From the NCBI GenBank assembly GCA_040954595.2, contig CM082580.2, positions 734,783 to 798,782 of the forward strand: DNA of 64,000 nt, read 5' to 3'. The position numbers were made by a program, and so were the translations under genes. This DNA is from Balanoglossus misakiensis (taxonomy: Eukaryota > Animalia > Hemichordata). Positions 10,601-55,197 of the stretch are shown in pieces. How positions within the stretch are numbered: the first letter of the stretch is position 1; every line of letters begins with the position of its first letter. Under the pieces are notes generated by a model. The model was given only the letters and a program-made list of their open reading frames with translations. It was not told where the DNA came from and did no database searches.

Positions 10601-13600
10601 TTCACCCATGATTTTTATTCAAAAATGGACGAAATTTTGAGATTTTGCAAAGACGAAAATTTGTCATTTTTTGATGATTTACACCCATGATTTTTTTTTA
10701 AAAATCGACGAAATTTTGAGATTTTGCAAAGTCGAAAATTTGTCATTTTTTGATGATTTTCACCCATGTTTTTTTTTTAAATCGACGAACCTATGATTTT
10801 TTTCAAAATCGACGAAATTTTGAGATTTTGCAAAGTCGAAAATATTCTCATTTTTTGATGATTTTCCCCCATGTTTTTTTTTTAAAATGGACGAAATTTT
10901 GAGATTTTGCAAAGTCGAAAATTTGTCATTTTTTGATGATTTTCACCCATGATTTTTTTCAAAAATCGACGAAATGTTGAGATTTTGCAAAGTCGAAAAT
11001 TTGTAATTTTTTGATGATTTTCACCCATGATTTTTTTTCAAAAATCGACGAAATTGTGAGATTTTGCAAAGTCGATAATTTTGTCATTTTTTGATGATTT
11101 TCAACCATATTATTTTTCAAAAACCGACGAAATTTTGAGATTTTGCAAAGACGAAAATTTGTCATTTTTTGATGATTTTCACCCATGATTTTTTTCAAAA
11201 ATCGACGAAATGTTGAGTTTTTGCAAAGTCGAAAATTTGTAATTTTTTGATGATTTTCACCCATGATTTTTTTCAAAAATCGACGAAATTGTGAGATTTT
11301 GCAAAGTCGAAAATTTGTCATTTTTTGATGATTTTCACCCATGATTTTTTTCAAAAATCGACGAAATGTTGAGATTTTGCAAAGTCGAAAATTTGTAATT
11401 TTTTGATGATTTTCACCCATGATTTTTTTCAAAAATCGACGAAATTGTGAGATTGTGCAAAGTCGATAATTTGTCATTTTTTGATGATTTTCCCCCAATG
11501 GTTTTTTTTCAAAATCGACGAAATTTTGAGATTTTGCAAAGTCGAAAATTTGTCATTTTTTGATGATTTTCCCCCATGTTTTTTTTTTAAAATGGACGAA
11601 ATTTTGAGATTTTGCAAAGTCGAAAATTTGTCATTTTTTGATGATTTTCACCCATGATTTTTTTCAAAAATCGACGAAATTGTGAGATTTTGCAAAGTCA
11701 AAAATTTGTCATTTTTTGATGATTTTCACCCATGTTTTTTTTTAAAAAAAAACGACGAACCTATGATTTTTTTCAAAATCGACGAAATTTTGAGATTTTG
11801 CAAAGTCGAAAATTTGTCATTTTTTGATGATTTTCACCCATGATTTTTTTCAAAAATCGACGAAATGTTGAGATTTTGCAAAGTCGAAAATTTGTCATTT
11901 TTTGATGATTTTCACCCATGATTTTTTTCAAAAATCGACGAAATGTTGAGATTTTGCAAAGTCGAAAATTTGTCATTTTTTGATGATTTTCTCCCATGAT
12001 TTTTTTCAAAAATCGACGAAATTGTGAGATTTTGCAAAGTCGAAAATTTGTCATTTTTTGATGATTTTCACCCATGTTTTTTTTTTTTAAATCGACGAAC
12101 CTATGATTTTTTTCAAAATCGACGAAATTTTGAGATTTTGCAAAGTCGAAAATTTGTTATTTTTTGATGATTTTCTCCCATGATTTTTTTCAAAAATCGA
12201 CAAAATTGTGAGATTTTGCAAAGTCGAAAATTTGTCATTTTTTGATGATTTTCACCCATGTTTTTTTTTAAAAAAAACGACGAACCTATGATTTTTTTCA
12301 AAATCGACGAAATTTTGAGATTTTGCAAAGTCGAAAATTTGTCATTTTTTGATGATTTTCACCCATGATTTTTTTCAAAAATCGACGAAATGTTGAGATT
12401 TTGCAAAGTCGATAATTTTGTCATTTTTTGATGATTTTCAACCATATTATTTGTCAAAAACCGACGAAATTTTGAGATTTTGCATAGACGAAAATTTGTC
12501 ATTTTTTGATGATTTTCACCCATGATTTTTTCAAAAATTGACGAAATTTTGAGATTTTGCAAAGTCGAAAATTTGTCATTTTTTGATGATTTTCCCCCAA
12601 TGGTTTTTTTCAAAATCGACGAAATTTTGAGATTTTGCAAAGTCGAAAATTTGTCATTTTTTGATGATTTTCCCCCATGTTTTTTTTTTAAAATGGACGA
12701 AATTTTGAGATTTTGCAAAGTCGAAAATTTGTCATTTTTTGATGATTTTCACCCATGATTTTTTTCAAAAATCGACGAAATTGTGAGATTTTGCAAAGTC
12801 AAAAATTTGTCATTTTTTGATGATTTTCACCCATGTTTTTTTTTAAAAAAAACGACGAACCTATGATTTTTTTCAAAATCGACGAAATTTTGAGATTTTG
12901 CAAAGTCGAAAATTTGTCATTTTTTGATGATTTTCACCCATGATTTTTTTCAAAAATCGACGAAATGTTGAGATTTTGCAAAGTCGAAAATTTGTCATTT
13001 TTTGATGATTTTCACCCATGATTTTTTTCAAAAATCGACGAAATGTTGAGATTTTGCAAAGTCGAAAATTTGTCATTTTTTGATGATTTTCTCCCATGAT
13101 TTTTTTCAAAAATCGACGAAATTGTGAGATTTTGCAAAGTCGAAAATTTGTCATTTTTTGATGATTTTCACCCATGTTTTTTTTTTTTAAATCGACGAAC
13201 CTATGATTTTTTTCAAAATCGACGAAATTTTGAGATTTTGCAAAGTCGAAAATTTGTCATTTTTTGATGATTTTCACCCATGATTTTTTTCAAAAATCGA
13301 CGAAATGTTGAGATTTTGCAAAGTCGATAATTTTGTCATTTTTTGATGATTTTCAACCATATTATTTTTCAAAAACCGACGAAATTTTGAGATTTTGCAT
13401 AGACGAAAATTTGTCATTTTTTGATGATTTTCACCCATGATTTTTTCAAAAATTGACGAAATTTTGAGATTTTGCAAAGTCGAAAATTTGTCATTTTTTG
13501 ATGATTTTCACCCAATGGTTTTTTTCAAAATCGACGAAATTTTGAGATTTTGCAAAGTCGATAATTTGTCATTTTTTGATGATTATCACCCATGATTTTT

Positions 13601-16600
13601 TTCAAAAATCGACGAAATTTTTAGATTTTGCAAAGTCGAAAATGTGTCATTTTTTGATGATTTTCACCCATGATTTTTATTCAAAAATGGACGAAATTTT
13701 GAGATTTTGCAAAGACGAAAATTTGTCATTTTTTGATGATTTTCAACCATGATTTTTTTTCAAAAATCGATGAAATGTTGAGATTTTGCAAAGTCGAAAA
13801 TTTGTCATTTTTTGATGATTTTCACCCATGATTTTTTTCAAAAATCGACGAAATTTTGAGATTTTGCAAAGTCGAAAATTTGTCATTTTTTGATGATTTT
13901 CACCCATGATTTTTTTCAAAAATTGACGAAATTTTGAGATTTTGCAAAGTCGAAAATTTGTCATTTTTTGATGATTTTCACCCATGATTTTTTTAAAAAA
14001 TCGACGAAATGTTGAGATTTTGCAAAGTCGAAAATTTGTCATTTTTTGATGATTTTCACCCATGTTTTTTTTTTAAATCGACGAACCTATGATTTTTTTC
14101 AAAATCGACGAAATTTTGAGATTTTGCAAAGTCGAAAATTTTCTCATTTTTTGATGATTTTCCCCCATGTTTTTTTTTTAAAATGGACGAAATTTTGAGA
14201 TTTTGCAAAGTCGAAAATTTGTCATTTTTTGATGATTTTCACCCATGATTTTTTTCAAAAATCGACGAAATGTTGAGATTTTGCAAAGTCGAAAAGTTGT
14301 CATTTTTTGATGATTTTCACCCATATTATTTTTCAAAAACCGACGAAATTTTGAGATTTAGCAAAGACGAAAATTTGTCATTTTTTGATGATTTTTACCC
14401 CTGATTTTTTCAAAAATTGACGAAATTTTGAGATTTTGCGAAGTCGAAAATTTGTCATTTTTTGATGATTTTCACCCATGATTTTTTTCAAAAATCGACG
14501 AAATTTTGAGATTTTGCAAAGTCGAAAATTTGTCATTTTTTGATGATTTTCACCCATGTTTTTTTTTAGAAATCGACGAACCTATGATTTTTTTCAAAAT
14601 CGACGAAATTTTGTGATTTTACAAAGTCGAAAATTTTGTCATTTTTTGATGATTTTCAACCATGATTTTTTTCAAAAATCGACGAAATTTTTAGATTTTG
14701 CAAAGTCGAAAATGTGTCATTTTTTGATGATTTTCACCCATGATTTTTATTCAAAAATGGACGAAATTTTGAGATTTTGCAAAGACGAAAATTTGTCATT
14801 TTTTGATGATTTACACCCATGATTTTTTTTCAAAAATCGACGAAATTTTGAGATTTTGCAAAGTCGAAAATTTGTCATTTTTTGATGATTTTCACCCATG
14901 TTTTTTTTTTAAATCGACGAACCTATGATTTTTTTCAAAATCGACGAAATTTTGAGATTTTGCAAAGTCGAAAATTTTCTCATTTTTTGATGATTTTCCC
15001 CCATGTTTTTTTTTTAAAATGGACGAAATTTTGAGATTTTGCAAAGTCGAAAATTTGTCATTTTTTGATGATTTTCACCCATGATTTTTTTCAAAAATCG
15101 ACGAAATGTTGAGATTTTGCAAAGTCGAAAATTTGTAATTTTTTGATGATTTTCACCCATGATTTTTTTTCAAAAATCGACGAAATTGTGAGATTTTGCA
15201 AAGTCGATAATTTTGTCATTTTTTGATGATTTTCAACCATATTATTTTTCAAAAACCGACGAAATTTTGAGATTTTGCAAAGACGAAAATTTGTCATTTT
15301 TTGATGATTTTCACCCATGATTTTTTCAAAAATTGACGAAATGTTGAGATTTTGCAAAGTCGAAAATTTGTAATTTTTTGATGATTTTCACCCATGATTT
15401 TTTTCAAAAATCGACGAAATTGTGAGATTTTGCAAAGTCGAAAATTTGTCATTTTTTGATGATTTTCACCCATGATTTTTTTCAAAAATCGACGAAATGT
15501 TGAGATTTTGCAAAGTCGAAAATTTGTCATTTTTTGATGATTTTCTCCCATGATTTTTTTCAAAAATCGACGAAATTGTGAGATTTTGCAAAGTCGAAAA
15601 TTTGTCATTTTTTGATGATTTTCACCCATGTTTTTTTTTTTAAATCGACGAACCTATGATTTTTTTCAAAATCGACGAAATTTTGAGATTTTGCAAAGTC
15701 GAAAATTTTCTCATTTTTTGATGATTTTCCCCCATGTTTTTTTTTTAAAATGGACGAAATTTTGAGATTTTGCAAAGTCGAAAATTTGTCATTTTTTGAT
15801 GATTTTCACCCATGATTTTTTTCAAAAATCGACGAAATGTTGAGATTTTGCAAAGTCGAAAATTTGTCATTTTTTGATGATTTTCACCCATATTATTTTT
15901 CAAAAACCGACGAAATTTTGAGATTTAGCAAAGACGAAAATTTGTCATTTTTTGATGATTTTTACCCCTGATTTTTTCAAAAATTGACGAAATTTTGAGA
16001 TTTTGCGAAGTCGAAAATTTGTCATTTTTTGATGATTTTCACCCACGATTTTTTTCAAAAATCGACGAAATTTTGAGATTTTGCAAAGTCGAAAATTTGT
16101 CATTTTTTGATGATTTTCACCCATGTTTTTTTTTAGAAATCGACGAACCTATGATTTTTTTCAAAATCGACGAAATTTTGTGATTTTACAAAGTCGAAAA
16201 TTTTGTCATTTTTTGATGATTTTCAACCATGATTTTTTTCAAAAATCGACGAAATTTTTAGATTTTGCAAAGTCGAAAATGTGTCATTTTTTGATGATTT
16301 TCACCCATGATTTTTATTCAAAAATGGACGAAATTTTGAGATTTTGCAAAGACGAAAATTTGTCATTTTTTGATGATTTACACCCATGATTTTTTTTTAA
16401 AAATCGACGAAATTTTGAGATTTTGCAAAGTCGAAAATTTGTCATTTTTTGATGATTTTCACCCATGATTTTTTTCAAAAATCGACGAAATTGTGAGATT
16501 TTGCAAAGTCGAAAATTTGTCATTTTTTGATGATTTTCACCCATGTTTTTTTTTTAAATCGACGAACCTATGATTTTTTTCAAAATCGACGAAATTTTGA

Positions 16601-19337
16601 GATTTTGCAAATTCGAAAATTTGTAATTTTTTGATGATTTTCACCCATGTTTTTTTTTCAAAAATCAACGAACCCATGATTTTTTTTCAAAAATCTACGA
16701 AATTTTGAGATTTTGCAAAGTCGAAAATTTGTCATTTTTTGATGATTTTCACCCATGATTTTTTTCAAAAATCGACAAAATTTTTAGATTTTGCAAAGTC
16801 GAAAATTTGTATTTTTTTGATGATTTTTACCCATGATTTTTTTTTTCAAAAATCGACGAAATTTTGAGATTTTGCAAAGACGAAAATTTGTAATTTTTTG
16901 ATGATTTTCACCCATGTTTTTTTTTCAAAAATCAACGAACCCATGATTTTTTTTCAAAAATCGACAATATTTTGAGATTTTGCAAAGTTGAACATTTGTC
17001 ATTTGTTGATGATTTTCACCCATGTTTTTTTTTTCAAAAATGGACGAACCCATGTTTTTTTTTTTCAAAAATCGACGAATTTTTGAAAATTTTGTTAAGT
17101 CGAAAATTTGTAATTTTTTTGATGATTTCCCCCCCCACGATTTTTTTTTTCAAAAATCGACGAAATTTTGAGATTTTGCAAAGTTGAACATTTGTCATTT
17201 GTTGATGATTTTCACCCATGTTTTTTTTTTCAAAAATGGACGAACCCATGTTTTTTTTTTAAAATCGACGAATTTTTCAAAATTTTGCAAAGTCGAAAAT
17301 TTGTCATTTTTTGATGATTTTCACCCATGATTTTTTTCAAAAATCGACGAAATTGTGAGATTTTGCAAAGTCGAAAATTTGTCATTTTTTGATGATTTTC
17401 ACCCATGTTTTTTTTTTAAATCGACGAACCTATGATTTTTTTCAAAATCGACGAAATTTTGAGATTTTGCAAATTCGAAAATTTGTAATTTTTTGATGAT
17501 TTTCACCCATGTTTTTTTTTCAAAAATCAACGAACCCATGATTTTTTTTCAAAAATCTACGAAATTTTGAGATTTTGCAAAGTCGAAAATTTGTCATTTT
17601 TTGATGATTTTCACCCATGATTTTTTCAAAAATCGACAAAATTTTTAGATTTTGCAAAGTCGAAAATTTGTATTTTTTTGATGATTTTTACCCAAGATTT
17701 TTTTTTTCAAAAATCGACGAAATTTTGAGATTTTGCAAAGACGAAAATTTGTAATTTTTTGATGATTTTCACCCATGTTTTTTTTTCAAAAATCAACGAA
17801 CCCATGATTTTTTTTCAAAAATCGACAATATTTTGAGATTTTGCAAAGTTGAACATTTGTCATTTGTTGATGATTTTCACCCATGTTTTTTTTTTCAAAA
17901 ATGGACGAACCCATGTTTTTTTTTTTCAAAAATCGACGAATTTTTGAAAATTTTGTTAAGTCGAAAATTTGTAATTTTTTTGATGATTTCCCCCCCCCCA
18001 CGATTTTTTTTTTCAAAAATCGACGAAATTTTGAGATTTTGCAAAGTTGAACATTTGTCATTTGTTGATGATTTTCACCCATGTTTTTTTTTTCAAAAAT
18101 GGACGAACCCATGTTTTTTTTTTAAAATCGACGAATTTTTCAAAATTTTGCAAAGTCGAAAATTTGTCATTTTTTTGATGATTTCCCCCCCCCACGATTT
18201 TTTTTTCAAAAATTGACGAAATTTTGAGATTTTGCAAAGTCGAAAATTTGTCATTTTTTGATGATTTTTACCCATGATTTTTTTTCAAAAATTGACGAAA
18301 TTTTAAGATTTTGCTGTCGAAAATCTGTCTTTTTTTGACGATTTTACCCATGATTTTTTTCAGAAATCGACGAAATTTTGAGATTTTGCAAAGTCGAAAC
18401 TTTGTCTTTTTTGATGATTTTCACTCATTATTTTTTTCAAAAATCGACGAAATTTTCAGTTTTTGCAAAGTCGAAAATTTGTCATTTTTTGAAGATTTTC
18501 ACCCATGTTTTTTTTCAAAAATCGACGAACCCATGATTTTTTTCAAAATCGACGAAATTTTGAGATTTTGCAAAGTCGAAAATTTGTCATTTGTTGATGA
18601 TTTTCATCAGCTATAACCCATTTTTTTTTCAAAAATCGACGAATTTTTGAAAATTTTGCAAAGTCGAAAATTTGTCATTTTTTGATGATTTTCACCCATG
18701 ATTTTTTTCAAAAATCGACGAAATTTTGAGATTTTGCAAAGTCGAACATTTTTCATTTATTGATGATTTTTACCCATGATTTTTTTTCAAAAATTGACGA
18801 AATTTTAAGATTGTGCAGTCGAAAATTTGTCATTTTTTGATGATTTTCACCCATTTTTTTTCAAAAATCGACGAAATTTTGAGTTTTTGCAAAGTCGAAA
18901 ATTTGTCATTTTTTGAAGATTTTCACCCATGTTTTTTTTTTAAATCGACGGACTTTTGAGATTTTGCAAAGTCGAAAATTTGTCATTTTTTGATGATTTT
19001 CACCCATGTTTTTTTTTCGACGAACCCATGTTTTTTTTTCCAAAATCGACGATATTTTGAGATTTTGCAAAGTCGAAAATTTGTCATTTTTTTATGATTT
19101 CCCCCCCCCCCCCACGATTTTTTTTTTCAAAAATCGACGAAAATCTCGAAGTTCTTGCAAAGTCGAAAATTTGTCATTTTTTGATGATTTTCACCCATGA
19201 TTTTTTTTAAAAATCGACGAACCCATACTTTTTTCAAAATCGACAAAATTTTGAGATTTTGCAGTCGAAAATTTGTCATTTTTCGATGATTTTCATCCAT
19301 GTTTTTTTTCAAAAATCGACGAAATTTTGAGATTTTG
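4615..19337 (+). repeat. 78-bp satellite array, orientation 1, with higher-order repeats
   Basis: Consensus about ATGATTTTTTTCAAAAATCGACGAAATTTTGAGATTTTGCAAAGTCGAAAATTTGTCATTTTTTGATGATTTTCACCC. The 26-aa periodicity of the spurious ORFs equals 78 bp. Some units carry an extra ~30-bp partial duplication (AAATCGACGAACCTATGATTTTTTTC). Confidence 0.98.
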
Positions 19338-31457: not shown

Positions 31458-31770
31458 AATGAGGCAGTGAACACTGGGGGGACCAGACTGACACGTTAAC
31501 CAATCAGGGAGCTGTATGGTGAATAAATACATATTAATAAGACCTAACCTACAAGGTCCTGCATAATGAGGCAGTGAACACTGGAGGACCAGACCTACAC
31601 ATTAACCAATCAGGGAGCTGTAAAGTGAATAATGCATTGTAATAAGACCTAACCTACAAGGTCTGGTGAATAATACATAGTAATAAGACCTAACACATAA
31701 GGTCCCTCCAATCAGCGAGCCGCAAGTGGACCTTAGAGAAGTGGATAAACCAATCAGAACATGTAATACG
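31458..31770. repeat. Short degenerate tandem repeat (~105-bp units with sub-repeats)
   Basis: AATGAGGCAGTGAACACTGG...TTAACCAATCAGGGAGCTGTA...AATAAGACCTAACCTACAAGGTC recurs; it abuts the broken end of the Gypsy RT. Confidence 0.7.
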
Positions 31771-31811
31771 TGTGCATAGGACCTGTAATGTAGGTCATTT
31801 TGAAACAGGAC

Positions 31812-33823
31812 TAGTTCACCATGACCAACCACATGACCCAGGAAATCGATCTGCTCATAACCCACATAACACTTAGTTGGTCTCGCTGTTAACTTTGCCT
31901 TTCGTAGTCTGCTCATCAAATCTGTAATTGTCTTGATATGTTCTTCCCATGATGCAGTGTGGATCAGTATGTGATCGATATAGTTGTCTACGTTCTTCAT
32001 ATCTCTTAACAATCTTCTCATAATTCTGCTAAAAGTCGCAGCACTATTTACAAGTCCGAAAGGCATTTTGATAAATTGGTATAGCCCATCATGCGTGATA
32101 AATGCCGTCAATTGTTTAGAATTATCAGTCAACGGGACTTGCCAATATTCTTTGCTGAGATCTACTTTAGTGAAATAGTGATCCTTGGATAACTTAGCAA
32201 AAAGCAAAAAGCTCACTCAGGTCTGGTGTAGGCTCTGCATCAAACACTGTTATGCGATTGAGCTTTCTCATGTCAACACAACAACGATTGGACCCATCAG
32301 ATTTCTTCACCATTACCAGTGGAACAGCATATGGACTCTCTGAAGGTTCAGCTACTCCCATCTTAATCATCGTTTTGACTTCATCTTTCACTGCTTCACG
32401 GAGTGCATGAGGGATGGGGTATGGCCTACTGCATACTGGTGTTGGATCCATCAACTTGATGTCATGGAAACCCAGGTTGGTGTTACCACGAATATCAGTT
32501 AACATATCTTTGTAATTGATCAGCAACCTCCTCACCACTTGCTTCTGTATGTCTGACAAGTTGTCACATACATTCACATCTGCAGCAAATTCTTTCTGCT
32601 TGAATGCAGGAACCCGCAGTAAGTCATCGTTTACTTTAACCCCTGTGTTCTCTTGTACTTCTGAAGATTCATAACTCTGCTCATCTATCACAGATACACA
32701 CACAATCTCAAGAAGTCCAGCTGATACTTCATCTAGCTGATCAGTTCTTCGATAGTACCTCTTCAACAGGTTGGCATGGAATGTTTTCACCCTATGACCA
32801 AAGTCAATCTTGTAATCCATATTGCTCGCTTTCTCCACCACTGGAAAAGGACCCTTCCAGTGCATAAGTAGTTTATTATGGTCAGTAGGTAGTAGCAATA
32901 ACACCTCGTCACCTTTGTTGAACTTCCTCCATTTGGCCTTTCTATTGTAGTAGGACTTGTATTTGCCTTGTGATATCTTCAGTTCTTGTCTTGCTAAATC
33001 GCATGCCTTCTTTAATTTCTTTTGAAGATCAAGGATGTATTGATAAGTCGTTTTGGTTTCTGGTTCACTGATCTCTCCAGTCCATAGTTCTTTCAAGATA
33101 GCCATTGGACCACGCACACTCCTCCCATAAAGTAACTCAAACGGAGAGAATCCTGTGCTCGATTGAGGCGTTTCTCTGTAGGCAAATAGTAAAGCATTCA
33201 GATAACGATCCCAATATGTTGGACGTTCCTCACACATCTTCCTGAGCATGAGTTTCAATGTACCATTGAACCGTTCCACTAGACCATTGAATGCTGGGTG
33301 GTATGGGGTGGTAGTCATCTGCTTTATAGACAAAAGCCGGCTGACCTCACGCATCACATCTGATGTAAATTGAGTTCCTTGATCTGTCAGAATTTCACGT
33401 GGACACCCCACTCTTGAGTAGATGTCCAGGAGCGCCTCTGCAACAGTCTTGGTATCAATGTTAGTCAATGCAACAGCCTCCGGATAGCGTGTTGCATAAT
33501 CAACAACAGTAAGTATGTACCTATTCTTGCGTTCAGTGCATGGATGAATAGGGCCAACCAGGTCTACTGCAATACGTAGGAAAGGGATATCTATTAGTGG
33601 CATACTTCCAAGTGGTACCTTGGTCACCCGTCCCTTTGGTTGTGTCCGTTGACATGAATCACAGGACTGACAGTAACGGGAAACATCTGATGTTAGCCCA
33701 GGCCAAACGAAGTTGCTGAGGATCTTGTCTGTGGTCTTGTGAGTTCCGTGGTGACCACCCAGCACTGATTCATGGGCTAGTCTCATCACCTGGTTACGAT
33801 ACACTCTGGGAACCACCACCTGT
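31812..33823 (-). pseudogene. Integrase followed by reverse transcriptase (frameshifted, truncated)
   Basis: H2C2 (AHESVLGGH...CQSCDSC), rve core (AVDLVGP, LTDQGTQF, NGLVERFN), WKGPF. RT: VDMRKLN, then after a frameshift near 32200 DLSKEYWQV, MPFGLVN, YIDH (mutated YxDD). Confidence 0.9.
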
Positions 33824-34672
33824 CACTACAGCTTGAACGACGCCACCTATGGGCAGTATTTCCGTGGCAGCCTATGAAGCTCATGAATATTTAATTAGAC
33901 ACAGTAATGGCGTTCGCGATCGAACACAGCTGTCGATGCACAGCATAATTCGGTGAGTAATATTGCTTTATTCCAAGTTTTGTTTAGTAAAATTAGCAAG
34001 ATGTCAGAGACAATATGAAATAAAGTTGCGATTCTGCTGTGTTATTTATGTGTATCAGCCAAATAACTTGAACATTTTGATCACCCGCTGACAGTCCCTG
34101 GCCGTTGCTATAGCAGAAGCCGTCCTAAGCAACCATAAACAAACACTAAAAATTACAACGATTCAGCTTCACAGAATTGTTTTTTTCAATTTGAAAACCA
34201 TACGAATTTAGTCTTTTATACGTAAACATAGGATTCCATGTTTAAAATGCTGCTACAAGCAATATGACGAAATCATACCAAGCGAAAATATACGACCCTG
34301 TGTGTTCCTTGGCAGCAGCACGGGTTACATTGATTGTAATGGCGGCGCTTCGAATTTTCGGCGACATGGTGATATTGTTCATAGAATTGACAGAAAATAA
34401 GACCGTAACTGAAAAATCAGAAACCAATAGTTTGTGCTAAAATATATTCTTGATATAATTCGCTGGAAATTCGAGGGTGAAAACGAAATAAGAAAAAAAT
34501 GAATGGGCGAGATTGTTATGGTAAGGTTACCCACATTCTTTCTATGTCACCTTTGACCTCAATTTCTGGAGGAAGTATAATGAGCAGGTGTTTTGTTTTT
34601 GCTTCCCTCGGATAGATAATTATTGTAAAGATATTTCTCTTGTTCACCCTTTTCAGGTATAGATTTAGAGCC

Positions 34673-37600
34673 ATGTGGGGCAAACTATTCAACAGGAGTA
34701 GCGCACTTCTTAAAAGTTTGTCTATTGTTATGCCGAATAGAAAAGGGAAAAGTTACTTCAACATAGGCCAGTGGGCAAAGGACCAAAAGATAGCGAGACA
34801 GGTAGCTGAAGAGAAGTGTTTACAACAACTATATCAGGAGAAATTGAAGACTAGATCTTTGTCTGGGAGCGTGGCCAACAACCTATTGGTAGTTAGAACA
34901 AAGAGAGGACAGACTAAACACAGGTTTAACTTAGGAGAGTGGTGTAGACAGAGAAAGAGAAAGAGAGATGAGGAAGAAAGCATAATTCAGGATAAGTTGA
35001 ATAAGTTGAGTGCAGCTAGGAGACTAGTAAAAAGATCCTCAACCCAGCTAGCTAGACTAGAGAAGAAGAACAGTAAGATTTGTGAGATCTTAGCTACAAA
35101 GAATAATAAGAGAAAGGTAAGCTAGATCAGATAAATAGACTTAGTCATAATTTTAAAAATCTCAGATTTGTATAAATCCTCTTCAAATTTTAGCCCAAAT
35201 TCGCTTTTTGAACTTCATGTCACATGATCCTGTGTAAACAATGATAACAAAATGGGTTCAGCTTTGATGCAAAACATCTAGGTTTTCCAACAAACTATGT
35301 ATATTTTTTAGGATTTTTATTGCAGAAGTTGTCAGAAAAATACAGGCTACACGTGTGTATTTCTTATCAAGGACATTTAAATTAATGATTAACTTGTAAG
35401 AAGATTTTATTTTATATATAATGATTATATTCTAATTAGTATATATTTATCACACACTTAATCTTTCAGATTCCTGTTGATGTTGTTAATGTGAAACGCT
35501 CTAAATGGGTCCACAAGAACACTGAAGTATGTGCAGATAATAGTGAATCTTTGAAGCTGTCGCGACGTCAACAGTATGAACGTAGGTGTGAAACCTTATC
35601 AGCAGCCATAAATATTCATGTAGCAACTACAGATGTAAGCCCAGCCAAAGGTATAAATAAACCGAATGTACTACATCCACCAAAAGCAGCACTTGATGGT
35701 TTGTGGTATACTCTTGTTAATTCTGCCACTCCTGACCAAATGAAAACATTCTTCAGAACCTCTCCCCAAATCAGTAAAAAAGTAATGCCATCAGTATTTG
35801 ATAAATACATCAGTAAATTTGAGAAAAGTGAGAACAATTTGGTGAGGAGTGTCAGAACTATGTATGAGGGCGGAGTACTATCCAAACGAAAATATAACTG
35901 TCTGAGGCAGAGTGAACTTCAGATGTTCTCCAACTTGAAACATCCTAGGAAAGCAGTAGAAATTCATTCTGGCTGTAGAATACCAAGACTGCTCCCATAC
36001 ACAAAAGTTGTACAGTATGTAAGTAACCTTGACATTGGAAATCTTGAGCCAATTATATCATCTGAAGGCAAACAAGTCGGCTTAAAAAGAAACCCTGAGG
36101 AGTTGCTTATTAAGATTGCCAGTTTATATTTAAATATGGGGGAAACACAGCCTGATATTCTTAACTGGTTCGGTAAACAGGAGGGCTCATTTCAAATCAG
36201 TATAGGTGCTGACGGGGCTCCGTTTGGCAAACATGGACAGGCCACTGCATGGCTAGTTAGTTTCTTGAATGTGACCCACCGTGTTGCTAGCCCAGACCAC
36301 AATTTTCTCCTATTAGGGGCAAACATAAAAGAGGATGACCCCATAATGATTGAATTTGCAATTGCATTGTCAAAAGACCTTGAGTGTATTGAGAAACGTA
36401 AATATAAAGTTGGCAGTCTTGATGTAACTTTTCAGGTGTCACTTTTACCCTTTGATCAGAAGGGATTGGCCAGTGTGTCTGGAGAACTAAGCAATGCAGC
36501 AAAGTATTTCAGCTCATTTGCTAACGTTCCAAAAATGATATTGATTGTATTGGAGCAGAAATTGGCCCAGGTAAGAAGTGGGATGAATGGAAATATCAGA
36601 AAAGAATTAAAGATGCAGAAGCTGTTGAAAAGTTGAAGTCAACTAAGAAAATTAAAACTGGAAAGCCCAAAACAGTGCGACCCAAAATCACACAATTTAT
36701 AGCCAGTCTGAGGTCAAGACAGGAATTTGTACCACCGTTGGGTAGATTTATTGATTGTGCCAAGGCTGAGCCATTGCATTTAAAGAACAATGCATGGCAA
36801 TACTACTTCCAACGATTACTGATTGACGCAGTTGCCCACACTTCGGAAAAGGGTCGTGAAAATGGAGTTAAAATTGAGAATCTACCTAACGAGTCATATC
36901 TGTACAAATTCCTGTCTGCCCTAAAATATCAAGTAAAAGCTGGAAAGTTGTATAATAAGATTGTAAAATACTTCAATGAAAATAGTGTCAAGTCAAATGC
37001 CAACATTAATGTGGTTTATCGCTTCACTGGTGAGGAGTCTCGCAAACTTGCTTGGCATTTCATAGGATTGGTATTAGCATTGAGAAGCGATACAGACAGA
37101 CCAAAGCGTCGGGCTCAATTAGCTCTCTACACATATACTGGTATCTTGCTTAGAGATATCACTTTGTTATTCTCACGATTCAACATAAATGAGGGAGATT
37201 TGCTTGTACTTAGGCATAAGTGTCGGTGGTACTTTAATCTACATTCCCTGTTTCTGAATGTCAATAATACTGTGTGGCACATTGGTTATGTAGTCCCAAA
37301 ACACACCACTAGTATCTATAAGCAATTCAGTCTGGGATTAGGCCTAAACACAATGGAAGGCAGAGAGGCAAAGCATCTACGCCTGCTAGAATTCAGTGAA
37401 AATTCTACACCTCAAAATAGGTGGGCCCTCATATTTCGACACGAATATGTGATGCTTTTTTGGCTGAGGAACAAAAGTCCAAAAGCTGACAACTATAGAA
37501 ATGCAAATGTAGGTCAATTTGAGCTTAAAGAAAAAGAAAAATACATTCCCAGTCGATATTATGAGAATGCAGGCTACTGTATGTGTGGCAATTTAAAAAA

Positions 37601-37710
37601 ATGAAACAATGACTGCCTGTGAAATATGTGTTGACCCAATTATGGATGACATAAAAAAAGCAGCTGTCACTGGTAAAATATCAAATAAACTCAAGAAACT
37701 TATGCTGTGA
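34673..37710 (+). pseudogene. Spliced RAG1/Transib/Chapaev-related DDE transposase with two single-base frameshifts
   Basis: Exon 34673-35116 (AAG|GTAAG) joins in frame to 35470 (TTTCAG|ATT). Motifs GADG, PFDQK, EPLH, RFTGEE, GLNTMEGREAKH parallel RAG1 CDG, GYDEK, DALH and GAWASEGNESGNK. Frameshifts near 36528 and 37598; restored C-terminus CMCG...CEIC, stop at 37708-37710. Confidence 0.75.
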
Positions 37711-38562
37711 ACAATGATTGAATTTGAAACAGTGGATTGTGTCACTGTGTGCTACTTTAGAATTAAAGGATAACTATAGTATTAATTACATTACAGAATT
37801 ATAAAGACTCATCTGTAGTTGAGAGCTGCATTTAATAAAAATGGAGATCACAAATCACATGAATTCACACTTTTTGAACTGGAGATGATATGTTTCTTAT
37901 GGGATTTTGTATATGTGTGCATGTATGGGGACAGGGAAATTGAAACTTATCTTACCACTATTAAGTATTGTGAATAAACCCTTAATCGTATAGTGATTGC
38001 AGTGCTTTGCAAAATTAAAATGTATGACATACATAAGCTTGATAGAAAAGTTTTACATTTTTCTTGAGGAGTTGTTTATTCTGCACCTGCACGAAATTTT
38101 AATGAATTTGTGAAAAAATAAAGAATTAAGTCTCATCAAATTCTTGATATTTATAAATTTTGTCATGGAATTAATTGTAAATATTAATTAAATTTAGACC
38201 AGAAATCCTGGTTAACTGTTAGATGAGCAGTTTTGATTGACTTATCAATGTTGATTGTAGGTAACATACATTTTTTTCTGAAACTAATGAAAAATCTATG
38301 TTACAATAATGATGGAAAAAAAGAATTTTACAGTTTAGGAAATTTTGTAAACATTATCTGTTCATTTGTATTGAATGTAGATAAATAAAGACAAGTGATG
38401 AATTTTTGAGTCTTCTAATTTTCCTTTTTTTATTTGAATATATGTCAATTGTGAGAGGACTGTCTTGACAGACTGATACATCTACACTGAACAACATGTG
38501 CCACAGATCAGGAAAAAAATGTTCCTCAGATGGGTTGAATCAGTGTGAAAAATCAATAGGGT

Positions 38563-39213
38563 TCAGTTCTCTGGATGTAATGGAATTCCATGTTTGTTCC
38601 AGGCACCAAAGCTGAATCTAACAGCAACAGTCTCCCTGTTGATAAAATATTTCACAACACAGGGCTTCTCAGGTGTGAATATAACAGCTACCCTCTTTCC
38701 ACGGACTTTCTTCTCTAGGATATTCTCTGTATGCTGACCGATAGCGCCCTCGTAGCAATAACCTTTCCGTATCACATACAATAGCTTCAAGGAACTTTTG
38801 AAGGTCAAGGTTATGATAGCCCTGGAGGTCTTCTCGTCGATACCAAAACCGGTCTGAGTAGCAAACTGATGAAAAACATCAAATACTTCCCTCGGCATTT
38901 GTCGTGTAAAGCTGCTTTGCCATGGTGACCTTAACGACGGGGATGTTGACAGCCGAGCGTAGAAGGTCTTCTGCCAGTAGGTCATATCACGCTGAAACAT
39001 GGGAAATACGGCGACGTCACGCCAACGAATCTTGTCCTTTGACAGCTTGTCGTTTCGAAATATGGCCCTTGTTGTCACATCCTCAAGTTCATCAAAGAGT
39101 GGGTGTATATACAGATTGTCCGACACGCATTTTTTACGTTTAAGCACAGATTTTGCCTCTCGCAATTTGCGTTTTATAACTTTCTCGGCATCGATCAACA
39201 CGGGCGCCGCCAT
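38563..39213 (-). CDS. Hypothetical 216-aa basic protein, second gene of the transposon
   Basis: Intact ORF starting 85 bp inside the right end, strong start context CCAAGATGGCGGCG, convergent with the transposase across an AT-rich 3' region. No recognisable domain and no kelch repeats. Confidence 0.72.
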   Translation of the reverse strand: MAAPVLIDAEKVIKRKLREAKSVLKRKKCVSDNLYIHPLFDELEDVTTRAIFRNDKLSKDKIRWRDVAVFPMFQRDMTYWQKTFYARLSTSPSLRSPWQSSFTRQMPREVFDVFHQFATQTGFGIDEKTSRAIITLTFKSSLKLLYVIRKGYCYEGAIGQHTENILEKKVRGKRVAVIFTPEKPCVVKYFINRETVAVRFSFGAWNKHGIPLHPEN

Positions 39214-39297
39214 CTTGGCAATGCGTTGCTATGGTGAACATGGGAGCTCGCGCTTCGCGGAATACTGCCCAACATAGCTCTAGTATTTCCCGCAGTG

Positions 39298-41110
39298 TGT
39301 AACAGCTTTTCACCAAATTGGACCATTGGCGAATTGAACTCTCTGTACAGGATCCCATCTTTCATGATGAACTTCAACCTACCTCCATTCCTAGTCACTT
39401 TCTCGTCACCCAAAATTGCCTTCTCACGTAGTTTGTCAAGAGTGGAGTCTTCTTCTTGAGCTTGTTGAAGCTTCCCTGGCATCACCACTTCACCAACAGC
39501 TTTAGGTACTTTAAGCTCTCTAATTGGTTTTTGGTTGGCTATCTTCTGGGCTCTGGTCTCCACAGCATTTGCTAAACCTGGTACCTGTCCAACAGTTGTA
39601 CACAGTCTACATGTCGGCAATGGTTCCTGCCATGTAGTATCAGGATTCGAAGGGTCAGATACACCATCAATGTTGCCCAGTATTAAATCATACACATGGT
39701 TCATCATGCACAGTGCAGTAACATCACCAACAAAGTAAGGGGTATCAACTTTTATAGAGGCTACAGGTACTCTTCTAATAGTCCCATCTATCAGAACACA
39801 CGTCCTGTACTCACCAGTCAGCTGATTACTTGACACCAGACTTCTTCGAACTACCACGCTACTACACCCACTATCACGCAAAACGCTAACCAGCTTACCA
39901 TCGAGCAATCCCTTCATTACCGGCATCTTCTTCACTCCATGGGCACTACAAGCAGCACTCATCACTGGGAGCTTATGACCACATGGTAACACGAACTCCT
40001 TATTCAGTGTTGCATCTGTTTTATCTATTTCCATTGCTACCACCATACATGCATAACCAGTGTCTAGTCCCCTGGGCTGTTGACGGTTGCCCCAATGTGT
40101 ACATTCTTGTTTAGGTGGATAGTTTCTATCTTCTTCAGTTAACAATACCGCCGTCTTATGCATCTTTGGCTTACTTCTACAATCTTTGGCCATATGACCA
40201 CCTTTACCACATACGAAGCACGTACCTTTAAAAACATGGGAACCATTGGTTTTGTTATTAAACTTATTTACTTGATTTGGATATACAGCAGGCTTGGTAT
40301 TTGCTGTCGGCTGGCTCCTTGGATTATTCTTGGCATTACTTGGCAGTTTCCACCACCCTCGGGCATCTAAGTATTTTGAGGCAGTAGATACCATCTCTTG
40401 GACATTCTCTGGCCGTCGCTCTCTAATGAACATTGCCATGTCTCTGGAACATACTCCAATAAACTGCTCTCGAAGTAACAGATCTGTAAGCCCATTGTAC
40501 GTCTTTGGAGTACCAGCCAGTTCTACCCATCTGCCCAAATAGTCACCAATACGGTCCATAAACTTTTGAGCACTTTCATCATAATGTGGCATACACGAAC
40601 GGAACTTGTCATGAAAACTCTCCTCACTTAACTGGTAAGCCCTCAATAACTCTGGTTTCAATTCATCATAATTATTTGCAGACGCTGCAGGCATTTGGTT
40701 GTATGTGGATACATCCTTACCTTGTAACAATATGCACTGAGATTCACCCCCAGTCATCTTTTTCCCACTTCTGAGCAGTGGCGTAGCGCTGAAAACGTTG
40801 AAGGTACGCATCCATATCATCAACATCCTCACGAAAACCCTGTAGTCTCGGAGCACGCGCTTTGGCCAAATTATTTTCAGTAACCTGCTGTTCTGTATTT
40901 TCCCCTTTCAATTTTAATTCTTGTAAGTGAATTTGCATTTTCAGTATCTCTCTCTCATGTTCCTCGCGCCGCCTATTATCTTCTCTCTGCTCCTCTCTCT
41001 CAGTAGCCCTAAGATCCCTCTGTCTAATTTGTTCCTCTCTAACATAATCTTTTAAAGCAGTCCCTTCCAACCCAAATTTTCTCCCTATCTTAGATATTCT
41101 TTCTGCATAT
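39298..41110 (-). pseudogene. Gmr1-type gag and protease, frameshifted near 40745
   Basis: DMDAYLQRFQRYA...W, LLREQF, CCHC knuckle CFVCGKGGHMAKDC, protease LRDSGC; in frame with the integrase once the insertion is removed. Confidence 0.88.
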
Positions 41111-51078: not shown

Positions 51079-52240
51079 TTATACTGGCAAGTTATCCAGG
51101 TTGTTATGTGTAGACAAATCATGGATATGGGGGTTACAGGATGGAACACCATTTTGAACCCTTTGAGGTTGTTCATATGTCAAATGTTTGGAGTTCCATT
51201 CAGTGCCCTGGAAGGAAAATTCTGGATATTCCTCAACATATTTCTTTACATGTCCAGTGGACCTTCTTTTTACACCTTTGGAGTTTTCCAATACTAACGC
51301 ACCTCCATCTTTCTGGATGACTTTGTATGGTTCTGTCTCGAAATTGGGAGTGAGTTTGTTTTGCCTAAATGCTTGCTGGAGCAAAACAGTATCACCTTCC
51401 CTGATATCTGAGGAAGTGGCATGTCTCCTGTTGTCGGCATAGAACTTTTGTTTCATTTTCATTCTGTTGTTTCTTTCTCTCATTTTGATTTGCCAATCAG
51501 ACTCATTGATTGTTTGGGATGGAATTCTCAGTCTAGGAATTTTGTCCCTAAACTCTCTTCCCATCAGAGCCATAGCAGGAGATATGCCTGTCACAGTATG
51601 GGGTGTATTTCTATATTCAAATAGAAAATGTGTCAAATCTTTGTACCAACTTTTCTTTTGCAATTTAGCAATTCGTACAGACTTCAAAATTATTTCATTC
51701 AGCCTCTCAACACTTCCATTGCTCTGAGGCCAGTATGGAATGGAATATTCATGATCAATACCTAAGTAATCAAGGAAACCTTCAAACTCGGCTGAGGTAA
51801 AAGGTGGACCATTGTCTGATTTGACACAGTAAGGCAACCCATGTGTAAGAAACATAGCTTCCATGGCTTTTATGACATGGGCAGCATCTGTTTTCTTTAA
51901 CAAAACTACTTCAGGCCATCTAGAGTATAAATCAGTTACCACTAGTAATTTCTCACCATCACATACATCCAAAAGATCAACTGCTAAATCGAACCATGGT
52001 CCTTCAGGTAACTGTGTGGGTAATAATGGCTCTGGGTTTGGCCTGGCACTGACCAATTGACATGGATGACAGGATCGTATCAGTTTTTCCACATCCCTGT
52101 CCATTCCTGGCCACCAAACTCTGTCACGTAAACGAGCCTTTGTCCTCACAATTCCCTGATGACCCTGGTGTGCAATTTTCAAGATTTTTCTTTGCAAAAC
52201 TTGAGGAACAACCAATCTGTTACCACGCATATCAATCTGC
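51079..52240 (-). CDS. Integrase portion of pol
   Basis: AHQGHQG...CHPC, AVDLL, SDNGPPF, SNGSVERLN; joined to RNase H by a frameshift near 52240. Confidence 0.9.
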
Positions 52241-53675
52241 CATACAACCATAATTCGTCTTTCACATGCCAATAGGGTGAAGACTTCAATTTTGACCAAT
52301 TTGCAGAGGTAATACACTTTTCAACCAATTGCAAGCTCTGGTCTTTTGCAGATTCTCTCTCAATATCACGTGGGGTGATAGCAGATGGCATAGCCTCTAA
52401 AACAACACTACATGCAAAATCTTCAGTCTCTCTACAATAGTTGTCAGATGGTTCGTCCACGGGCAATCTACTCAACATGTCCGCATAATTATTCTTTCCC
52501 TTGATATGGGTGATATGATAATCAAATTGTTGCATATATAACAGCCATCTCTCAATTCTAGCTGAAGGGGGCCTGGAGTTAGGGCTGAATACTTTCAATA
52601 AAGGCTTATGGTCAGTTCTGACCTCAAAATGACTGCCTAGCAGAAACTGCTGAAGTTTCTCACATGCCCATTTAACTCCAAGCGCCTCTCGCTCAAACTG
52701 AGAGTACCTCGACTCAACATGTGTAAGCTTTCTGCTAACATAGTACACTGGTTGATATGAACCATTACTTTGCATTTGTTCAAGGATTGCTCCAACACCA
52801 ACGGGCGATGCATCAGAAGTGACTCGAGTTTTAGCACCCTGCTTGAAATAAGCCATGAATGGACTTGTGGTCAATTTATGTTTGATGAGATTGAATACTT
52901 TCTCATGCTTGGGAAGCCATTTCCACTTTGCATCTTTGCGAGTCAAATCCCACAGTGGGCTTGTCACTGTTGCAAATTTATCGACATATTTTGAGCAAAA
53001 TTGAGCCAGCCCAAAGAAACTTCTCAATTCTGATTTGTCAGTTGGCGTTCGAGCTTTTACAATAGCTTTGACCTTCTCATCAGTGAGTTTCATACCCTGG
53101 GCCGTCATCAAGTGACCCATGAATATCATACTGTCTCCTAGCTTACATTTTGTAAAGTTCAGCGTTAAACCATGCTCACTAAAACGCTTGATCACTTTCC
53201 CAACTCTGGCATGCAGCTGCTCATAATTTTCAGCTACTACTCTAATATCATCATGCATGTTGTGGGCACCCTCACAGCCCTTCAAAACCTGGCTAATTAG
53301 ATTTTGAAACTTTTCAGTCGCCATGTTCACACCAAAAACTAAACGCTTGTAGCGATACAAAGAGTTGGGCCCTGAAAAGGTTGTAATATCCCTGCTCTTT
53401 TCATCGAGCTCAATTTGATGGAAAGCCATATTCATATCAAGCTTGCAAAATACCTTGGCCCCTGAAATTTCCTCTAGCGTTTCATCCATGGTGGGAACAG
53501 GGTGTCTTTCCCTAACAATGGCTTGATTTGCTTTTCTCATGTCCAGACATAGTCTGATATCCCCATCAGGCTTTTGTACTGTTACAAGGGGGTTGACCCA
53601 AGAGGTCGGACCCGAAACCTTCTCTATTACTCCCAGCTTTTGAAGCTCGTTGAGTTTTTTCAACAACTTTAGCAC
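52179..53675 (-). CDS. Reverse transcriptase and RNase H portion of pol
   Basis: CLDMRKAN, LDMNMAFHQIEL, LVFGVN, MHDD, DASPVG, YSQFEREAL, TDHKPL, NYADMLSR. Confidence 0.92.
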   Translation of the reverse strand: MLKLLKKLNELQKLGVIEKVSGPTSWVNPLVTVQKPDGDIRLCLDMRKANQAIVRERHPVPTMDETLEEISGAKVFCKLDMNMAFHQIELDEKSRDITTFSGPNSLYRYKRLVFGVNMATEKFQNLISQVLKGCEGAHNMHDDIRVVAENYEQLHARVGKVIKRFSEHGLTLNFTKCKLGDSMIFMGHLMTAQGMKLTDEKVKAIVKARTPTDKSELRSFFGLAQFCSKYVDKFATVTSPLWDLTRKDAKWKWLPKHEKVFNLIKHKLTTSPFMAYFKQGAKTRVTSDASPVGVGAILEQMQSNGSYQPVYYVSRKLTHVESRYSQFEREALGVKWACEKLQQFLLGSHFEVRTDHKPLLKVFSPNSRPPSARIERWLLYMQQFDYHITHIKGKNNYADMLSRLPVDEPSDNYCRETEDFACSVVLEAMPSAITPRDIERESAKDQSLQLVEKCITSANWSKLKSSPYWHVKDELWLYGRLICVVTDWLFLKFCKEKS

Positions 53676-55197
53676 GGCGGTTGAAAGGAATTCGCCGGTA
53701 CTGGGCTATGGGTTTGACACTCTCATCAATATGCAAATGGAGCTTGTAGCCCTTTAACTTACCCAACCCATTAAATACCTCAGAATATTTCCTCCGCAAT
53801 TCTGCAAGAATTGGCGAAGAATTATCAGCAGATATTGAATTTATCGTGTACAGATTCACATTTCCAACTCTCAACATATCTAAATTCTCAGAAGTACTCC
53901 GACTCAACAAAATCGGTTGATCAGCCTTGATCACTATAAAATCAGCAATACATTTCTTTTTAGTAGGCGCTTCAACATGTAAGGCACATTTACCCAATAT
54001 ATCTAAAGGTTTACTAGAACCATAGGTAAACACTTTATTGTTACAATTTCGAACTTTCACACCACGCTTTTCAGCAAGTCTGCGAAATTGTCTTTCACCA
54101 ATGAGATTACGTGTAGCACCACTGTCGATGATAACCGGCACGTGTTGATTCTCGATCTGAATACCTGTATCAGTGAGGTCCTTCCCACTGGAAGCACGGA
54201 AAGCAGCATTGAAAGCATAGTACGCTTTCTCCTCGTCAGTCTCGACGTCTGCATGGCCACCATCGGCGTTTGCATCAGTAGTCGTCTGAGCTACCTTGTG
54301 TGTACCGCGACCATCACCACGCGTACGGCCACGTCCACGTGCGCTGCGGTTATCACCACTGCCTCGACTGTTGCCATTTTCACTGTCTTTAGACGGACAG
54401 TCTTCCCACTTAGCACGACAGTCTGCAGCTCTGTGTCCCGGTTTTTGACATCGGAAACACCGGTCGGACTTTTGTTCGGCATTGCGAGAACTACCACTTG
54501 TACTGGCGCGACATTCACGTTGCATGTGACCTTTCCTTCCACAACGGAAACAGGCTAAGTCCGCCATTTTGTTTTTGGCGCGCGTACGTTTACCGCCAAT
54601 ATTGACTGCATTTGCACTCACAGCTTGAGTACCAGACACCAAAACTAGTGCATCTTTGTCGTGATACGACCGTATGATTTGTAGTAGTTTGGTAGTGTCC
54701 AAATTCTTTTCACGATACAGCTTGCTTTTTAGCACCTTGTCGCTGATGTAGAGCAAGACACGATCTCTTATCTGGTTGTCTTTTTCCGTCTCGGGAAAAT
54801 CACAGTCTTTCAGTAGGTTCTTGAGACGTATTACGTAGCTGTCGACCGTCTCCCCGGACGTGGGAGTTGCGCTGTAAAACTTCTGTCTCGCCATAGGAAC
54901 GTTTTTCTGCAGTTGAAAGTGTTTATCCAAACATGCTATCAACGTTGCGCAGTTTGTGACGTCACCAGTTTCATCTTCAGATTTAGTGCTAACAATGTCT
55001 CTGATGCCCGCTCCAGCCATGTGCAAAAGTAAGGCACGCTTCTGCGCATTATTTGAAACACCAGAAGCTGCTACGAACAGTTCAAATTCCTGAAGCCAAC
55101 GCTCCCACCTTTGCTGAAGAGCCTCCGGTTCGCCTTCACAGTCGAATCCCGCCACTCCTGGCAGTCCGGACAGCGTTACGGGTGTAGACATTTTCAT
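53566..55197 (-). CDS. Gag (two CCHC knuckles) and aspartic protease
   Basis: CFRCGRKGHMQREC, CFRCQKPGHRAADC, IIDSGAT; frameshift into RT near 53665. Confidence 0.92.
   Translation of the reverse strand: MKMSTPVTLSGLPGVAGFDCEGEPEALQQRWERWLQEFELFVAASGVSNNAQKRALLLHMAGAGIRDIVSTKSEDETGDVTNCATLIACLDKHFQLQKNVPMARQKFYSATPTSGETVDSYVIRLKNLLKDCDFPETEKDNQIRDRVLLYISDKVLKSKLYREKNLDTTKLLQIIRSYHDKDALVLVSGTQAVSANAVNIGGKRTRAKNKMADLACFRCGRKGHMQRECRASTSGSSRNAEQKSDRCFRCQKPGHRAADCRAKWEDCPSKDSENGNSRGSGDNRSARGRGRTRGDGRGTHKVAQTTTDANADGGHADVETDEEKAYYAFNAAFRASSGKDLTDTGIQIENQHVPVIIDSGATRNLIGERQFRRLAEKRGVKVRNCNNKVFTYGSSKPLDILGKCALHVEAPTKKKCIADFIVIKADQPILLSRSTSENLDMLRVGNVNLYTINSISADNSSPILAELRRKYSEVFNGLGKLKGYKLHLHIDESVKPIAQYRRIPFNRRAKVVEKTQRASKAGSNREGFGSDLLGQPPCNSTKA

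Follow-up and report, generated by a model that had tools for sequence, protein, structure and literature searches.

A small-protein gene convergent to a predicted RAG1/Transib-fold transposase inside a CAC...GTG transposon of Balanoglossus misakiensis: a putative transposition cofactor

DNA transposons that carry two genes are already known. In MuDR, two convergent genes are each transcribed inward from a TIR, and one of them encodes MURB, a protein of about 200 aa without known domain; the TSD of Mutator is about 9 bp. Other two-gene systems have been described with different partners. According to the accessible portion of PMC12730594, PIF/Harbinger is a two-gene transposon with a 3-bp TSD and a DNA-binding Myb/SANT-like partner. 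The same portion (Kojima 2025, PMC12730594) regards CAC...GTG termini with a 3-bp TSD as consistent with EnSpm, which it places in a wider CMCT clade including Transib, and gives C(2)C and H(3-4)H as motifs of that clade. For En/Spm of maize, both TNPA and TNPD were essential in the excerpted text of PMC1636069. The RAGL elements are arranged as TSD-TIR5'-RAG1L-RAG2L-TIR3'-TSD; RAG2L is convergent to RAG1L, lies about 600 bp downstream of it and is made up of a six-bladed kelch domain, an acidic hinge and a PHD, as set out in the sections consulted of PMC10629977. In current models, as these sections give them, RAG goes back to the capture of a RAG2-like gene by a Transib-type transposon (PMC10629977).

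In the window, that is, the whole stretch of 64,000 nt of Balanoglossus misakiensis DNA that was analysed, a DNA transposon of 5,474 nt was delimited at 33824..39297, with both junctions read and a single copy within the window. Its termini follow the pattern CACT.C/G.AGTG, the left end beginning with CACTACAGC... and the right end finishing with ...CCGCAGTG. Alignment of the left end with the reverse-complemented right end showed an imperfect TIR of about 110 nt (33824..33933 on the plus strand and 39188..39297 on the minus strand), with TGGGCAGTA.TTCCG common to both ends and an ATGGCG about 85-86 nt in. The termini are directly abutted by the two copies of a TGT TSD (33821..33823 on the left and 39298..39300 on the right). 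When one TGT copy is counted, the flanks give a single open pol frame of the surrounding retroelement across the junction, which supports both the boundaries and the 3-bp TSD. An earlier placing of the ends as CTGT.AC at 33820/39305, without a duplication, was replaced by 33824/39297 with TGT. Contigs from two DNA runs of one sample (X1 and X2) reproduced the element as assembled.

The insertion is hosted by an LTR retroelement on the minus strand (31602..41070) with Pfam matches to SCAN, zf-CCHC, Asp_protease_2, Integrase_H2C2, rve and RVT_1, and the transposon splits its pol at the start of the integrase. The minus-strand ORFs of the retroelement are gag (40744..41070), gag-protease (39195..40856), integrase-reverse transcriptase (32194..33819) and reverse transcriptase (31602..32216), with a frame change between the last two. 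The integrase therefore precedes the reverse transcriptase (gag, protease, integrase, reverse transcriptase), a position that is unusual among gypsy-like elements and that we take to be reminiscent of Gmr1-like elements. A second, unrelated LTR retroelement on the minus strand (51079-55197) showed the usual order, with a gag carrying two zinc knuckles, protease, reverse transcriptase, RNase H and integrase in three overlapping ORFs, and no nucleotide similarity to the retroelement at 31602-41070. The window also contained about 14.5 kb of a 78-nt AT-rich satellite (4728-19200; 26-27% GC), in which higher-order periodicity was seen at 156-157 and about 184 nt.

The transposase is represented by three plus-strand ORFs (34640..35125, 35491..36636 and 36633..37604). 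ORFs 1 and 2 connect in frame through a canonical intron (GTAAGC...TTTCAG; 35117..35469, plus strand), a splice inferred from the sequence. Exon 1 (34730..35116, plus strand) begins with MPNRKGKSYFNIGQW... and matches the N-termini of the relatives P0026 and P0082. Exon 2 (35470..37704, plus strand) retains GADGAPFGK, P.D.K and MEGREAKH, which supply the candidate D, D and E. Comparison with the 679-aa relative P0001 placed two frame changes in exon 2, near 36530 and near 37598, in agreement with the sequence-only reading of this DNA, which had described a transposase with two frameshifts. Downstream, a spacer of 858 nt (37705..38562) with AATAAA-type signals on both strands (38384 on the plus and 38429 on the minus strand) separates the transposase from a second, convergent gene.

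Relatives of the transposase of about 700 aa numbered 107 at E<=1e-3. The best was an uncharacterized Ptychodera flava protein (74% identity), and others include proteins of corals and Nematostella. In an alignment of 20 sequences, D181, D262 and E566 (P0001 numbering) were kept in 20/20, 19/20 and 20/20 sequences, respectively; the only columns 80% conserved between D262 and E566 in this one alignment were E272, E352, H370, C518 and H545, and a CxC...CxxC cluster follows E566 at 637-653. None of these proteins carried a Pfam domain (thresholds of E<=10 for the pieces from the window and E<=1 for 20 relatives), and neither phmmer with the pieces nor a search with the 20-sequence profile gave a match among PDB sequences. 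An AlphaFold model of P0001, which is 74% identical to the window transposase, had a pLDDT of 85.8 and a pTM of 0.85. Foldseek with this model returned 49 PDB matches at E<=1e-3 and, among the matches listed, all were RAG1, HzTransib or BbRAGL. The top match was the RAG1 core 4wwx_B (E 4.8e-11, TM 0.53/0.58 over about 700 columns), while the P element transposase reached only E 1.9e-2. Because the best Foldseek matches are RAG1, HzTransib and BbRAGL, the transposase is predicted to be RAG1/Transib-like in fold over its whole length.

The second gene is an intact ORF of 216 aa on the minus strand (38563..39213). It starts with ATG in the context GCCAAGATGGCG, with A at -3 and G at +4, and ends in ...FSFGAWNKHGIPLHPEN. 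The ATG at 39213 lies 84 nt from the right terminus at 39297, and the right inverted repeat covers this 84-nt leader together with the first ORF codons. The N-terminus of the protein is basic (KRKLREAKSVLKRKK) and the pI of the whole protein is 9.95. The sequence-only reading had proposed an uninterrupted ORF with a strong start just inside the right end and a basic N-terminus, and on these points it was correct. It had also called the ORF an orphan that could not be assigned to a family, and here the homologue searches gave the opposite result.

A full HMMER scan with the 216-aa ORF over 1.84 billion representative proteins yielded 76 homologues at E<=1e-3, 11 of them at E<=1e-10, so that the ORF is more than a chance open frame. 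The best homologue (P0108, 207 aa) had an E-value of 1.7e-16 and 29% identity. Members of the family are mostly about 200-250 aa long, with some shorter fragments, and the alignments reach the C-terminal end, where the family signature YG.WN..G.PQH is found. Near-invariant positions in 37 aligned sequences were P97, F111, Y202, G203, W205, N206 and H213. The genes are multi-copy, with 90% clusters of up to 216 members over many contigs. A profile search showed that 43/43 matches carried the precomputed Pfam accession PF26709.1, including the alignment members P0128 and P0135, and the small-protein family is thus already catalogued. A word-index protein search with the ORF alone gave no match, Pfam gave none for the ORF at E<=10 and no consistent one among 37 relatives, and a sequence-profile search of the PDB gave at best a helical stretch (E 0.055). 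Comparison of the small-protein and transposase families by hhalign showed no relation (probability 0.2%), and scans of viral contigs with the transposase alignment, P0124 and P0128 found no match. For P0294, Pfam gave no support to the name "RNase P subunit RPR2" assigned by JGI. Two gene models of Tubulanus polymorphus (P0175 and P0236, 613-633 aa) join tau/MAP tubulin-binding repeats to a family-like C-terminus at 459-609; the fusion reflects an exonised transposon gene or else a faulty joining of the model. Within 38565-39272, diverged contigs of the same sample align with the ORF at its two ends only, skipping 38612..39159, with about 80% likeness, and become unlike from 39272 on, a hint that older paralogous copies exist in this genome.

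The AlphaFold model of the 216-aa protein, built from a 37-sequence alignment, had a pLDDT of 87.6 and a pTM of 0.70. It predicts three long helices (4-87) followed by an alpha/beta domain (99-205) that bears the conserved C-terminal motif. Strands were modelled at 99-105, 125-138 and 167-205, in line with the beta-rich C-terminus that had been suspected from the letters. Pfam gave no match in the small protein to kelch, RAG2, PHD, Myb or Transposase_24, and Foldseek found none at E<=1e-3 in the PDB or BFVD. A wide VIA-align search matched only helices 1-61 (Z<=8.2), within the noise of the tool for helical models, and in a second structure search the alpha/beta domain reached at best Z 4.8 (KICSTOR) and 4.6 (RnlA) against the PDB, below the noise level. 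An Argonaute N/L1/PAZ lead (Atlas, score 0.92, low recognition) did not recur with the relative P0124. The predicted fold is accordingly described as one with no convincing structural match; a new fold is not claimed, the C-terminal domain having been modelled only within the full protein.

The arrangement of the two genes recurs in a 21,959-nt stretch (L005) from a contig that bears the label of an Anaerolineae MAG. One open frame there, of 742 aa, encodes a transposase relative about 40% identical to the window transposase; about 4 kb downstream, an open frame of the small-protein family occupies the opposite strand and is therefore convergent. The closest relative of this partner is P0128 (53% identity), and it is 25% identical to the window ORF (E 7e-10). 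The pair is flanked by a perfect inverted repeat of 15 nt, CACGGTGGGCACAAG, at 8241 and 16782, the termini read CACGGTG.../...CACCGTG, and the ATG of the partner is 92 nt from the terminus. The element has 40% GC and interrupts a satellite of 55% GC with the consensus CTAATACCACC; judged against this consensus, its junctions (...CTAATA|element|ATACCACC...) give a 3-bp ATA TSD. Among 401 genomes of the bacterial class concerned, only this MAG (1/401) contained the small-protein family; in view also of the satellite and an apparent intron, L005 is likely to be a eukaryotic contaminant of a bacterial MAG. The stretch combines a 134/160/294-nt satellite array with a eukaryote-type transposon. It also contains an inverted duplication of about 340 nt (8777-9115 against 16329-16661; 92-95% complementary), by which the 5' part of the partner gene is present a second time near the left end, upstream of where the transposase starts. 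At the left end of the window element, the only vestige of such a copy is the ATGGCG about 86 nt in.

Further copies extend the linkage to varying degrees. A metagenome scan with the single protein gave L001-L004, of which L001-L003 are too short to show linkage to a transposase. In L001 and L003, the copies are alike from CACGCC onwards, a point 82 nt upstream of the ATG, and have different flanks; by this alignment, the two are a third lineage in which a CAC terminus lies just outside the gene. L004 holds a 3' fragment of a family gene, and the 5.8 kb downstream contained no transposase at E<=1e-5. Records of transposase and small protein coincided in contig size at 243385, 5281 and 294651 (one pair of 90% clusters), and another match occurred at 5166, in a cluster that includes a Pocillopora meandrina protein; contigs of 5.2-5.3 kb are element-sized. 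These coincidences suggest linkage in two more lineages, although distance and orientation are not given by such matches, and the 5166 match could be due to chance, since about 0.3 chance size matches are estimated among short contigs. Orientation and spacing of the pair were thus seen directly in two elements only, those of the window and L005. Between L005 and the lineage of the 5166 contig (P0048/P0249), the partner was 65% identical and the transposase 42%, which points to either wrong pairing or an exchange of modules. Linkage of homologues to the same transposase thus found partial support: the pair is convergent in L005, and the L004 fragment has no transposase match in the 5.8 kb downstream. 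The proposal of an accessory gene of the transposon is supported, as the ORF lies inside the ends and convergent to the transposase in a layout that recurs in L005.

The intactness of the window ORF beside a broken transposase, pointed out in the sequence-only reading, was found to carry no statistical weight. With two lesions per about 2.7 kb of transposase coding sequence, about 0.5 would be predicted for 651 nt, so that the chance of no lesion is about 0.6 and intactness is uninformative on selection; the open frame of the window copy may be luck. Within a dead element carrying two transposase frameshifts, this copy could act in trans only, if at all. Among copies, dN/dS was 0.29 over the longer divergence between L001 and L004 (95 codons), while close copies gave 0.69 (204 codons) and 0.91 (70 codons), as expected for decay. 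These values agree with selection acting on active lineages, inserted copies then decaying neutrally. Constraint on the aligned proteins shows chiefly in their length, frame and motifs, which are deeply conserved at 20-30% identity.

From these results, the small protein is regarded as a conserved convergent partner, encoded 82-92 nt inside the right terminus of CAC...GTG transposons with 3-bp TSDs and a transposase of predicted RAG1/Transib fold, and we lean, with moderate confidence, towards a role as transposition cofactor. Under this reading, both genes would be transcribed inward from the similar terminal repeats of about 110 nt. The basic small protein would then join the transposase on the element ends and may serve end binding, synapsis or integration. 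Such a partner role would be parallel to that of RAG2L with RAG1L, TNPA with TNPD, or MURB with MURA.

A role as regulator rather than subunit, in which the protein would act on the terminal promoters or on host silencing, as activator, repressor or anti-silencing factor, and outside the DNA chemistry, is considered unlikely. It would agree with the position of the ATG 82-92 nt inside the terminus in three lineages. It would also agree with the terminal repeat of the window element, which recurs at the transposase end and, because it covers the gene start, makes terminal DNA of the small protein's own promoter region. TNPA offers a precedent, as it reactivated a methylated promoter and repressed an active one in the excerpted text of PMC1636069. 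The family as a whole is basic (median pI 9.3, n=47), but the charge of the N-terminal region is not conserved, since this region is basic in the window copy and acidic in L005 (pI 5.79). Nor did Pfam, PDB-profile and fold searches recover a DNA-binding or chromatin-reader domain, and the Argonaute-N/PAZ lead was not reproduced with P0124.

It is still less probable that the gene is a passenger, captured or selfish, that contributes nothing to transposition. Elements with transposases of only about 40% identity have it in the same place and orientation and at the same distance from the terminus, and its frames are intact with motifs kept at 20-30% identity. No single-copy relative resembling a host gene appeared among the 10 + 4 clusters listed, and the named relatives were unnamed or hypothetical products, one fused model and the one unsupported RPR2 label. 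A passenger would nevertheless account for the L004 fragment without transposase, for the Tubulanus gene model fused to tau/MAP repeats, and for the divergence of the gene pairs, which was not congruent (Spearman -0.26 in six comparisons over four putative pairs). An inhibitor that limits transposition (self-restraint) is very improbable. Element-encoded repressors, such as truncated repressor products, are precedented in other transposons, and intact small-protein copies persist beside a broken transposase, as in the window. This persistence is compatible with chance (about 0.6), however, and the small protein has a conserved gene and a fold of its own, unlike the usual truncated-transposase repressors, with an hhalign probability of 0.2% for relation to the transposase.

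The reading as a conserved partner and probable cofactor would bring together known and new parts. Two-gene DNA transposons and the Pfam accession PF26709 of the small-protein family are on record, and perhaps the linkage may be too. In open-access papers and preprints, no two-gene animal CACTA or Transib-like elements with such a partner were found, and as far as these papers and preprints show, what is new is a non-kelch protein in the RAG2 position as the partner of a RAG1-fold transposase, a pairing that recurs across distant invertebrate lineages. A second RAG1-fold family with a different partner in the same position, if true, is a natural comparison, which could show whether a partner is used in cleavage, in synapsis of the ends, in the choice of target or in access to chromatin. 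Since both genes of the L005 element are open and its ends perfect, it looks suitable for a test of activity, which makes the question experimentally approachable.

Compared with the described systems, the element shares some features with each. The convergent pair with a small partner protein recalls mudrB of MuDR, and the TIR of about 110 nt over the gene start in the window is in keeping with that arrangement, MURB being compared by description only; unlike in MuDR, no MULE Pfam match was found, the transposase model is RAG1-like and the TSD, at 3 bp, is shorter than the roughly 9 bp of Mutator. Two genes and a 3-bp TSD are shared with PIF/Harbinger as described in the accessible portion of its source, but no DDE_Tnp_4 or Myb/SANT match was found in either protein, and the termini and transposase fold are of RAG1/CACTA type. 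The ends resemble those of EnSpm/CACTA, with CACTAC.../...GCAGTG and TGT in the window and CACGGTG.../...CACCGTG and ATA in L005. Unlike in EnSpm/CACTA, a Transposase_21 (PF02992) match was absent, both from the pieces of the window transposase (E<=10) and from 20 relatives (E<=1), a Transposase_24 Pfam match was likewise not found, and the C(2)C and H(3-4)H motifs, as the available text defines them for CMCT, were not conserved in the one alignment of 20 sequences. A second, smaller product alongside the transposase is a likeness to TNPA, to the extent that the excerpted source describes it; TNPA arises by alternative splicing of one same-strand transcription unit, whereas here a separate convergent gene is present. 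Transib differs in having a single gene and a 5-bp TSD against two genes and 3 bp here. Some Transib-lineage elements are reported with a 3-bp TSD in the consulted part of a preprint (10.64898/2026.08.26.747230), so that TSD length alone is not decisive against Transib, and the L005 terminus CACGGTG is one base off the RSS-like heptamer CACAGTG. Based on the RAG1/Transib-like predicted fold, the EnSpm-type ends and TSD, and the lack of conservation of C(2)C and H(3-4)H, the element was filed as a divergent member of the CMCT clade, and not as Transib, RAGL or canonical CACTA.

The RAGL/ProtoRAG elements, within the description given in the sections consulted, share with the window and L005 a convergent second gene downstream of a RAG1-fold transposase (a predicted fold here), inside ends that start with CAC, and the spacing is about 600 bp to RAG2L against a spacer of 858 nt in the window element. 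The TSD is 5 bp in RAGL and 3 bp in 2/2 elements with both ends seen here (TGT in the window, ATA in L005). The transposase had no sequence match to RAG1 by phmmer, PDB profile or Pfam, while by predicted fold (model of P0001) RAG1, at an E-value of 4.8e-11, HzTransib and BbRAGL were the best PDB matches. The partner differs as well, being a protein of 216 aa with three helices and an alpha/beta domain and no kelch, RAG2 or PHD match. The sequence-only reading had placed the gene in the RAG2 position, which holds as geometry, with a transposase model that best matches RAG1, Transib and BbRAGL, but not for the partner itself, which is not RAG2-like. We tentatively suggest that RAG1-fold transposases may have gained an obligate small partner at least twice, the kelch protein RAG2L in one case and, in a widespread invertebrate lineage, an unrelated protein of about 210 aa with an unmatched fold in the other, in the same convergent 3' position, and that the two-subunit, convergent layout of the RAG locus might be a recurrent solution rather than a one-off capture.
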